A stretch of DNA of 49,226 bases from Escherichia coli (GCF_003334765.1 NZ_QOWT01000030.1), one strand, 5' to 3'; counted from the first letter of the stretch, positions 33,001 to 36,000 are shown. A program made the numbers.

Positions 33001-36000
33001 CCGGTCGTTTTCATGATGTAGGGTCGTTCACCCTCGCGGTAATAAACAGCAGCATATTTATCACCATATATAATAACCAGTTCAGCCCGGGATGTTACAG
33101 CGTTCCCTTTCCTTTCGAGGAAAACATTTCGCAAATTTACAGTTGGCGTTATCTGACATACAGAAAGCGGACGAGTATATTTTCTCCCGCTGCGAAAATG
33201 ACAGGTCAGCATAACCTCTCTGTCGTCATTTCCAGCCCACAGCGTCCAGTCGGTAATTTTATGAGTCTTATTTTCACCGTCAACACAAATCGTGACCATA
33301 TTCTTACTCAGAAATTATCATTTAACTTACGGAAAATTGTTAAGGCACTCCCGATATTAGCTCCGGAGGATTTTCCACAACTCCGGGACTGTTAACATAT
33401 TTCTGCCTGCCATATATACATTGAATTTAGTCATAACAGTCAATACCAGAATTACAGGAATGCGATGCCGATACGCTGGTTATTGAATACTGGTAGCCCC
33501 TGAGCACTAATTCATCACGATACTCTGTATTTACTGTTTTCACTGCTTTTTACAACCATTCCCCCAGGTAAAATGCTGCTCCTCCGGTGATGGCTGTGTC
33601 AGAAACTGCCATCCCGGAATAGCCACGCTGACCGCCAGCAATGCCGCACAGACACCAGCCACAAACGGTTTCAGAAACGTGGGCGGGGATTTCTGAAGGG
33701 AGGGTGACTGCTCCGCCTGCACTTTCCCCTTGCGATTATCAAGGCTCAGTGCATCCAGACGCACCGCGCCATTTGCCGCAAGCAGCCCTTCCCGGTTATC
33801 CACGCTTCCCGGCAGACTCAGCGAAAAATCCCCTGTTCCCGTCTGAATCAGACTGCCTTTACGATTTGACAGGCTTTGTGCCGATATCTGCAGTGTGTCG
33901 GCATTTATCGTACCGCCATTACTGCTGAACTGCCCGGCAGTCCGGGCGGAAAGCGTATCGGCACTCAGTTGCGCATTCTGTGTAGACAGATTTCCACTGG
34001 TTGCATTCAGCTCAGTATGTTGTCCCTGTATCCGGCTGTTACCTAAATCCAGCCCCTGCTCAATGTCCCGTAAATCCAGCAGAGAACCTTCGTGTGCCGG
34101 GAATGAGGAATACAACTGAATATAGTCATCACTGTCCGGTGTCAGACGCACATGTCGCACAACACCGGGAATAATAACCAGCCGGAGGATACCGCTTTTT
34201 AAATCCTGCGAAGGTGCCAGAACACGGGTGGTGACATAACCATGATCGACCAGACGGTTCTGCAATGTACTCATCAGCAGATTAATTCCTTTCGCCCCCA
34301 GGCAATGCCCGACCGCCCCGTTGGCGATTTTTTGTAAAGGCAGCCAGTGTGGTAACGCATCAGCCCCCTTCAGTTCCGTCTGTTTAATCTGAAAACAGGG
34401 CGTTTCAACAGGAAATTAATCTTATGGGCAAAAGAGCCAGGTGCAGAAAGGCGAACATCAGGGGCTGAAGGCGTCAGTTGTTGCTCAAGGGCTTCCTGAC
34501 GCTGCTGCTGAATGATAAATGCTTCATCTCCGCTACGCCGGACATCCGCTGCCTGAAGAGATAAAGGCGATAATAAAGCAGACATCAGTGTCAGTGACAG
34601 CAAGGACGGACAGCGCCGGAATAAGCTTTGTTCCTCAGTCCTCTCGTTCCTGCAACATAATTTTCCAGTCAAACGAAAAACCTTTTATTCATGTCATACC
34701 AACAATCACCAGCCTCCTGACGATACCTCCCACCATGTTTTGCGATGGCACGCTACCGCCCTTCCGGTATTTACCCGCATCAACCGGTACCAGAATGCTG
34801 AGTAACAAACCAGCCAGAATTGACTTAATTTTGATCATTATAGAATAATGATCTGAACTACAGCAACATGACAGATTTATCGATCGATATAACACAAATG
34901 AACAGTTCTTTATTCTGACTAATATCGCAAAAACAGCACATTACAAAATTTATAACCATAATTACTGGAAAAGTGCAGAAAATTATTCCACTGAATGCTT
35001 TTAATACAGTTGGTTAGCTTAAAAAATAGCAATTTTTGATTTCAGTCATTGAAAGTTGCAATGTTTGACGATTCAACAGCATTTAAGTGAGTTTCAGGAT
35101 ATGGGAAGGACATGAAAGGAGGAGCGCAATAAAATACACAGGAAGAAGGGGAAAATGTTTCGTAAAAACAGAAAATTAACAGCGCACATCAGGAAACGCA
35201 GTCTCCTGATTCAGTGCTATCACATGAAAATTTAGTTAACTGTTACCGTACTAAAATTTATGTCAGAAGATGTTCCATTACCGAAAGTCAATCAGCGATA
35301 CAAAGACGATCATGGTGCGCTTGTCACCCTGACCAGTGTTGAGGAAACCCGGGTGGTGTTTATGCAGGACGGCTATCCGCATCCCTGCATGCGACCGATG
35401 TACAACTTTCTGGGAAAATTCAAACCCGAACCCCGGGAAGAAAAAGAATAAAACGAAATCCCTGCCGGCAATCACACTACCTGATAGCAGCATAATCCAC
35501 TTATTAATTCTCATCCCCGGAGACAAGCCCAGAAAACCACTCCGGGTGTTCACTGTATGCCGTGTTCAGCGCATCCCTGGAAACGTTTATATAAAAGCTG
35601 TCCTGCAATTTGCGGGTAACAACTTCTGCCAGGCGATTCCGGTTATCCACCAGTCCGGCATAACCTCTCTCTGCCAGCCACTCATTCAGTTCATGTTCCA
35701 GAGACAGATTGATAATATCATAATCGGACCTTGCCATTCCCGTTTCCTTAGCACATGTTTTCAGGCACGGGGATAAAGTATAAAGAATGTCATACTGCTG
35801 CTGCCAGAGCAATATTCCCCCTGATGGTTGTATCAGAGATGGTATGCCGGTACTTTGCGGGTTGTTCCCGTCAGGTTATCGTGCACCTCCACGGTCGTGG
35901 TCACCACCGGCATTCCGGCCTTTCTCAGCCTCAGAACATCAGCCGCAATACGCTGACTGCCAAACCAGAACAGGCCGTCCAGTGCAGTCACCAGTAAACC

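Follow-up and report, generated by a model that had tools for sequence, protein, structure and literature searches.

A stretch of Escherichia coli DNA of 49,226 nucleotides, referred to below as the window, carries on its minus strand, at positions 33540–34672, a three-part chimeric pseudogene of the form cdiB'::'cdiA'::'vasL'. This pseudogene is very probably the scar of a class IV-type contact-dependent inhibition (CDI) locus (cdiB-cdiC-cdiA-cdiI) that formerly stood here, in an island resembling SpLE1/OI-43,48. A TpsB-like N-terminus, a POTRA segment and haemagglutinin repeats had been noticed in this interval by an initial annotation made from the sequence; these features are real, and their matches to Pfam and NCBIfam families and to CdiB structures go far beyond chance. 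The comparison with TpsB and TpsA family profiles suggested at that time returned POTRA_2 (E 2e-22), the filamentous-haemagglutinin repeat TIGR01731 (E 4e-11) and the CdiB structure 6WIM (E 2e-15). The initial annotation had missed the third component, a vasL-like piece, and a frameshift.

In the window, the remnant is divided between two ORFs, both on the minus strand. ORF 1 (34370–34672, TTG start, 100 aa) is the cdiB 5′ end, with the signal-peptide region and the N-terminal helix/linker region, and past the frameshift it continues for 13 out-of-frame codons before reaching a stop. ORF 2 (33540–34274, ATG start, 244 aa) comprises part of POTRA1, a truncated POTRA2, the cdiA repeats, the vasL transmembrane (TM) piece and a tail, but no signal peptide, and a protein identical to it is on deposit under the names ‘HecB-like protein’ and ‘adhesin HecA family 20-residue repeat’. 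The frame that encodes the POTRA and haemagglutinin-repeat part is open from about 34419. What separates the two ORFs is a 1-nt deletion in a T-run (34413–34415, minus strand): the window has TTT, whereas EDL933 and every one of the best-matching complete genomes have TTTT. The fusion ORF is split as a result, its TpsB N-terminus being read in a frame different from that of the POTRA and repeat part. The earlier description of all segments as lying in the same ORF therefore holds in part: POTRA and repeats do share one ORF, but the TpsB N-terminus (ORF 34672–34370) is in another frame, one T being missing. The break falls after codon ~57 of the ORF annotated by PGAP (ATG 34585). A hydrophobic stretch ending in ...SLQA/AD is visible in ORF 1, likewise out of frame with the POTRA part, and translation from the cdiB start (TTG 34672) would end in the window with the 100-aa peptide of ORF 1. 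Elsewhere, the cdiB starts used are ATG 34585 (PGAP) or TTG 34603, 18 nt upstream. In other strains, including EDL933 and O145, the chimera is an uninterrupted 348-codon ORF whose product is WP_001345400.1, ‘POTRA domain-containing protein’; the residue numbers given below for domain matches are those of this 348-aa reconstruction.

It is possible, though on the unlikely side, that the 1-nt deletion is a homopolymer sequencing or assembly error and that the strain really has the intact 348-codon ORF. The change is one T in a T-run, it is absent from all 5,426 complete E. coli genomes searched by blastn, and the best complete-genome matches of the remnant (word-11 blastn, E. coli) stand at 99.9%, i.e. 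one gap, which in every case is exactly the gap in the T-run. Against an error, a pseudogene is expected to gather real frameshifts, and the neighbouring ORF for an 893-aa helicase is intact in the window and split in EDL933, so that the window is not generally error-prone. Should the frameshift prove to be an error, the reading of the region as a CDI scar would not change. A promoter and terminator scan of 33200–35300 found sites no more numerous than in shuffled sequence and placed no site ahead of cdiB' on the minus strand, and a repeat search revealed no relevant repeats within the window.

TpsB transporters possess two periplasmic POTRA domains and a C-terminal 16-stranded β-barrel whose L6 loop bears a VRGF/Y motif. 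In the cdiB part of the remnant, POTRA1 is complete (34164–34394, minus strand; Pfam POTRA_2 at aa 65–141), and POTRA2 (34047–34160, minus strand) is truncated, its Pfam POTRA_3 match (E 1e-8, aa 143–180) covering only model positions 2–40 of 56 versus positions 2–56 in the intact CdiB of strain RM9245. The solved CdiB structures 6WIM and 6WIL (E 1e-9 for the latter) match aa 19–198, with an alignment that decays past ‘DIEQG’. Compared with the CdiB proteins of E. coli EC93 and Acinetobacter (6WIM, 6WIL) and with FhaC-type TpsB proteins, the remnant thus aligns over the N-terminal region and POTRA1 and into the beginning of POTRA2, but nothing is left of the 16-stranded β-barrel (Pfam ShlB), the part that does the transporting. 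No Pfam match to the ShlB barrel occurs in the fusion protein; the barrel lies inside a 2,985-bp deletion. Intact RM9245 CdiB matches ShlB (PF03865) at E 2.5e-109 and contains RWTVRGFDG. Overall, about 32% of cdiB is kept in the window.

The cdiA part is an internal fragment of 355 bp (33705–34059, minus strand) from the FHA-1 haemagglutinin-repeat region, equivalent to aa 439–553 of the 2,978-aa CdiA of RM9245 (91.8% nt and 88.7% aa identity). The presence of FHA-1 β-helical repeats is established both by this identity and by TIGR01731, the filamentous-haemagglutinin 20-aa repeat, at 42.7 bits versus a cut-off of 18. CdiA of RM9245 has an ESPR-type start (MNRNCYRIIFNKARGM) and a TIGR01901 match at E 1.4e-22. 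Searches with NCBIfam and Pfam found no match to the TPS secretion domain (TIGR01901/Haemagg_act) in the fusion protein; the kept fragment begins at CdiA aa ~438. The receptor-binding domain, FHA-2, the pretoxin VENN region and the C-terminal toxin all fall inside a second deletion, of 16,008 bp, and none of them is found in the window, where about 4% of cdiA is kept.

The third and last part of the ORF is a vasL-like fragment of 133 bp (33574–33706, minus strand), which is joined in frame and contributes 44 codons of an inter-domain TM segment, giving a hydrophobic stretch. The same 133 bp recur in other E. coli between pseudogene pieces annotated as ‘T6SS ImpA_N’ and ‘VasL domain’, and in STEC384 they lie in frame in an uninterrupted 453-aa ImpA_N...VasL protein, at its TM segment. 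In this full-length homologue, Pfam places ImpA_N at aa 8–109 and VasL at aa 301–442; both domains are absent from the remnant, where the segment between them is found alone. The vasL-like piece ends at junction 3 (about 33574) and is followed by an unrelated tail (33540–33573, minus strand), seen as the 11 residues at the end plus the stop. This 3′ truncation of vasL also occurs in RM9245 and is therefore older than the cdi deletions. A reading of the tail after ‘...KGKVQA’ as cdiA in a shifted frame was considered and rejected, tblastn, tblastx and blastn against 28 intact loci giving no match; this tail is vasL-like.

The origin of the chimera can be followed at the nucleotide level owing to an undeleted cdi locus that RM9245, W24 and other strains carry at the corresponding place in the island, next to the DUF4222 gene on its downstream side. 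It was discovered through coverage classes of word-11 blastn matches, one of which stops exactly at the cdiB/cdiA junction; these partial-coverage classes overturned the impression left by a first megablast, in which all matches were named ‘POTRA domain-containing protein’, that E. coli has no intact cdiB. In RM9245, cdiB is an uninterrupted 583-codon frame with POTRA_2, POTRA_3 and ShlB. Between cdiB and cdiA lies cdiC (175 aa, Pfam HlyC at E 8e-32), and the 2,978-aa product of cdiA runs from the ESPR-type start through the TPS domain and FHA repeats to VENN at residue 2760 and a C-terminal domain of ~215 aa. A small membrane ORF in the cdiI position is a putative cdiI. Past this candidate come an orphan VENN fragment, IS3, a DUF6882 gene, a TssE pseudogene, an Ail/Lom gene, a NERD-type helicase gene and the vasL-like gene, beyond which RM9245 and the window again share the 893-aa helicase gene and ibrAB.

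Alignment with this locus (L039) resolves the region into three collinear blocks: window 27208–33706 corresponds to RM9245 332–6830 (97.1% nt identity), window 33705–34059 to 22839–23193 (91.8%) and window 34048–35380 to 26167–27501 (96.6%). RM9245 is a close relative of the ancestor and not the ancestor itself, the cdiA fragment being 91.8% identical versus about 97% for the flanks. Junction 1 (34048–34059, minus strand) is a 12-nt microhomology, GCAGGGGCTGGA, of which the undeleted locus has one copy in cdiB, at codons QGLE, and another in cdiA, where the codons read QGLD. The deleted interval of 2,985 bp that separates them holds the 3′ two-thirds of cdiB, the whole of cdiC, which is accordingly absent from the window, and codons 1 to about 437 of cdiA. 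The fusion is in frame because 2,985 is divisible by three and all three genes are in one frame. Junction 2 (33705–33711, minus strand), with a microhomology of 2–3 nt only, links the cdiA fragment to the vasL-like fragment. Relative to RM9245, the corresponding deletion took the rest of cdiA including the VENN/CT toxin region, the cdiI candidate and the orphan VENN fragment, as well as IS3, the DUF6882 gene, the TssE pseudogene, the Ail/Lom gene, the NERD helicase gene and the 5′ part of vasL. The proposal that the transporter gene and a piece of its own cargo gene were brought together by a deletion is thereby confirmed at the nucleotide level, through RM9245, the 12-nt repeat and the 2,985 bp. 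The events would have occurred in three steps. Illegitimate recombination between the 12-nt repeats would first have joined cdiB codon ~181, in POTRA2, in frame to cdiA codon ~438, in FHA-1; a deletion of ~16 kb would then have joined cdiA codon ~555 in frame to the TM segment of the already truncated downstream vasL-like gene; and the further 1-nt deletion, seen in the window only, would finally have broken the frame.

Orphan toxin or immunity fragments, which had been anticipated nearby, are found neither in the flanks nor elsewhere in the window; the second deletion removed them. The downstream neighbour (33299–30618) encodes the 893-aa SF1 helicase, with AAA_11, AAA_12 and a C-terminal DUF2726, which has a partial, sub-threshold similarity to defence helicases; in a CDI system the cognate cdiI directly follows cdiA, and no such gene is present here. 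Upstream are the DUF4222 gene, an ECs1377-family gene and unassigned small ORFs. PADLOC and NCBIfam detected no toxin or immunity remnant on the six flanking ORFs, the small ones among them matching no family, and the suggested search of the flanks for orphan immunity genes gave no family match. Comparison of the deleted RM9245 segment with the whole window (blastn, tblastx) likewise revealed no counterpart beyond one 44-nt stretch (13096–13139), which lies under a transposase fragment in RM9245. Orphan cdiA-CT/cdiI modules are reportedly found downstream of cdi loci (Poole et al. 2011), and RM9245 itself has its orphan VENN fragment downstream of cdiA, as in such loci. Like the remnant, these modules are CDI-locus leftovers made by recombination and deletion, but they keep toxin and immunity coding sequence, whereas the remnant keeps neither.

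Function of a TpsB protein depends on the β-barrel, and export of CdiA on a signal peptide and the TPS domain; inhibition further requires the receptor-binding domain and the C-terminal toxin, and self-protection requires cdiI. Of TpsB the remnant lacks the β-barrel, and of CdiA the signal peptide, the TPS domain, the receptor-binding domain and the toxin; the immunity gene is missing too. Judging from these losses, its product is almost certainly inert, doing nothing in secretion or inhibition. As a separate observation that runs against a pseudogene, the reading frame is kept at both junctions and most carriers have the 348-codon ORF intact, so that an expressed protein is formally conceivable, although two in-frame junctions would arise by chance in about 1 case in 9.

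The surroundings and distribution of the chimera bear on this point. The E. coli genomic island of which the window is part carries iha, ter and aerobactin genes, and the best matches of the window are O55:H7 and O145 strains (99.6–99.7%). In the O157 strains Sakai and EDL933, the island is SpLE1/OI-43,48 and the gene is ECs1382 (Sakai) or Z1640 (EDL933), ‘HecB-like protein’. ECs1382/Z1640 (WP_001345400.1) is the same allele as that of the window, with 99.8–99.9% nt identity, both deletion junctions identical, and shared neighbours: the DUF4222 gene, the ECs1377-family gene, the 893-aa helicase gene, ibrAB and a PerC-family regulator gene (pchD in Sakai). The window differs by its extra ORF-breaking 1-nt deletion and by lacking the IS629/IS1203-type element that O157:H7 carries at about 34706–34711, ~35 nt upstream of the TTG start. 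In UTME-4, a second IS lies inside the ORF, at about 34080–34084. Both insertions are signs that nothing protects expression.

Of the 5,426 complete E. coli genomes, 493 have junction 1 and 497 have junction 2. Both are 100% identical in the O157:H7 and ETEC strains listed, with O111:H8 in addition for junction 1 and O26:H11 for junction 2, which indicates one allele that would have spread with the island. Carriers of the chimera are about 99.9% identical, and 190 genomes still have the segment that deletion 1 removed. At least 1000 contigs encode the 348-aa protein, which has been deposited as, for example, ‘ShlB/FhaC/HecB family haemolysin secretion/activation protein’. The chimera is thus a known, widespread and already catalogued pseudogene of a known system, not a new system. 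In the literature searched, its prior description is limited to mentions in gene lists, where ECs1382/Z1640 stands among the ‘virulence-related’ EHEC genes as a HecB-like protein (PMC2323221, PMC1890555).

There is very little probability that deletion created a functional new gene, namely a Sec-exported POTRA and β-helix protein with a vasL-derived TM anchor, kept for instance for envelope biology or for interference with incoming CDI. Just as improbable is the more specific proposal that the chimera (signal peptide, POTRA1, partial POTRA2, about six FHA repeats and the vasL TM helix) would be expressed as a membrane-anchored periplasmic protein and kept in EHEC islands for a new role, the frameshift of the window being a sequencing error or a recent loss. 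Preservation of the reading frame at both junctions speaks for a new gene, as does the intact, near-identical 348-aa ORF on those contigs and in about 490 complete genomes, but this near-identity reflects the recent spread of one island allele and not measurable purifying selection. Moreover, the window itself is frameshifted, IS elements lie just upstream in O157:H7 and inside the ORF in UTME-4, POTRA2 is cut mid-domain, and other strains have this cdiB cut short at a minimum of three further positions. A decaying CDI remnant remains the preferred reading.

As to the kind of system that decayed, class IV CDI in E. coli has the cdiBCAI architecture, as described for STEC_O31 with CdiA-STEC4 (Halvorsen et al. 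2021; PMC8510554). The order cdiB, cdiC (HlyC-family acyltransferase) and cdiA is found in the undeleted relatives of the remnant. For class IV cdiB, it was proposed that translation starts at a UUG located 18 nt before the annotated ATG (PMC8510554), and the TTG 34603/ATG 34585 pair of the remnant fits this remark. Compared with a class IV locus, the window lacks cdiC, the receptor-binding domain, the toxin and cdiI, and the likeness to STEC_O31 rests on architecture. Class IV ancestry is what we infer for the remnant from its relatives only.

Such relatives extend to other genera. A scan with the CdiB part, one genome per species, yielded 28 loci, in Enterobacter, Lelliottia, Leclercia, Yersinia, Brenneria, Pantoea, Tatumella and Erwinia. 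In the six loci examined by blastx (L004, L006, L007, L009, L013 and L024), the CdiB POTRA region is 73–78% identical, and the intact CdiB proteins of Enterobacter, Lelliottia, Brenneria and Pantoea show 73–78% aa identity to the remnant. The repeat part matches the downstream cdiA of the same locus in five of these six (aa ~417–567, 40–50% identity), the match starting at ‘...QG(V)D(L/I/V)S.SQTQG’, and the same agreement with the cdiA of the locus, where it would be expected, is seen in most of the 28 enterobacterial species. In the locus of Enterobacter wuhouensis (L004), which has the closest cdiB outside E. coli, the corresponding cdiA region is just 26% identical; the cargo gene is thus more variable than the transporter gene, and this locus is of little use for mapping. 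An HlyC-like ORF was found in the cdiB–cdiA gap of three of the four loci translated (L004, L007 and L013, none being seen in the Yersinia pestis locus L010), so that cdiC is present in the Enterobacter, Lelliottia and Brenneria loci whose gap was translated.

The initial annotation had left open a CDI or a haemolysin-type system; the CDI alternative stands, on account of VENN and cdiC in the undeleted locus and of the class IV architecture, and the haemolysin alternative does not. That the remnant derives from a haemolysin or adhesin two-partner system (ShlBA, HpmBA or FhaCB-like) is scarcely credible, since the deposited names ‘ShlB/FhaC/HecB family haemolysin secretion/activation protein’ and ‘HecB-like protein’, and the fact that the kept pieces are themselves generic TPS parts, are outweighed by the VENN-bearing 2,978-aa CdiA with its ~215-aa C-terminal domain, the small membrane ORF in the cdiI position and the orphan VENN fragment downstream, the cdiC gene, whose place between cdiB and cdiA is that seen in characterised class IV CDI loci, and best solved-structure matches that are CdiB proteins.

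ECs1382/Z1640, named a haemolysin secretion/activation protein in thousands of records, is better read as a dead cdiB'-cdiA'-vasL' chimera. Conversely, in genomes with the intact locus, RefSeq breaks up the cdiB and cdiA ORFs, uninterrupted as they are, and gives one of the pieces a name like that of the remnant; this hides presumably functional class IV CDI systems. Decay of the locus is not confined to the chimera. In other strains, the same cdiB is cut at the window-equivalent positions 34237 (fused to the vasL 3′ part), 34217 (followed by a GIY-YIG gene) or 34544 (at an IS/integrase remnant). These several independent truncation points in different E. coli document recurrent decay of the CDI locus, which adjoins a variable island stretch rich in defence genes.

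Split annotation of cdiB and cdiA conceals intact loci for contact-dependent growth inhibition (CDI) of class IV, the class with cdiBCAI architecture. The frames concerned lie at 7016-8668 and 9221-14554 in L037, one of the compared loci, and at 15564-26705 in L039, the locus of E. coli RM9245, where they are divided by RefSeq/PGAP features. An uninterrupted cdiB frame of 583 codons is represented by two features, of which one is a pseudo ‘POTRA domain-containing protein’ and the other a 359-aa ‘ShlB/FhaC/HecB’ protein. An uninterrupted cdiA of 2,978 codons is represented by three. 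The same split feature names recur in all 26 full-length matches listed, for a segment present in ~190 genomes. We infer that the protein encoded by the chimeric cdiB'::'cdiA'::'vasL' remnant, acting as an annotation reference, is the likely cause of this splitting.

The undeleted 5' segment of cdiB-cdiC-cdiA is also found, at 97.9% identity, in two O157:H7 strains, namely 7636 (NZ_CP038421.1, ~3,625,588) and Z1834 (NZ_CP062702.1, ~3,626,965). In O157:H7 strains, including EDL933 and many others, an IS3-family element of the IS629/IS1203 type occupies the site corresponding to window ~34706-34711, ~35 nt upstream of the TTG start of cdiB'. This element is absent from that site in the window, which therefore does not represent a typical O157:H7 lineage at this position. 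Immediately upstream of cdiB' lies an unannotated ORF of 68 aa (34689-34895, minus strand) with a signal-peptide-like stretch (MIKIKSILAGLLLSILVPVDA...); no family was matched by this ORF, and its DNA is also found upstream of the intact cdiB of RM9245.

A homologue of the vasL-like gene behind the third piece of the remnant is apparently full-length in E. coli STEC384 (L035, 5343-6704), where an ORF of 453 aa has the ImpA_N...TM...VasL organization. Here too the PGAP annotation is fragmented, with three pseudogene pieces for the single ORF, and no T6SS genes are annotated within ~6 kb on each side of it.

The stretch extending from the DUF4222 gene to ibrAB (PAPS reductase and IbrB-like; window ~27200-35400, compared in loci L032-L036) differs greatly in content among E. 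coli islands and looks like a hotspot for defence and competition cargo. Depending on the strain, it carries a Qat system, a KAP P-loop NTPase, a GIY-YIG nuclease, a NERD/DEAD helicase, T6SS gene fragments or a cdi locus. In the window, an SF1 helicase ORF of 893 aa (30618-33299, minus strand) comprises AAA_11 and AAA_12 domains, with DUF2726 at the C-terminus; it is unbroken, whereas in EDL933 it is divided into two CDS (516 and 2169 nt). Its similarity to the defence helicases Mokosh MkoA/MkoC, Hhe and ProA is partial and below cut-off, and it may be a defence gene.

Elsewhere in the window, an ALIL pseudoknot (25619-25735, plus strand), a programmed-frameshift element of the IS3 family, marks an IS3-family transposase or its remnant. 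Finally, an Rfam match to Esr41 (enterohaemorrhagic E. coli sRNA 41; 44146-44219, minus strand) scores 103.4 bits, barely over the gathering score of 102.
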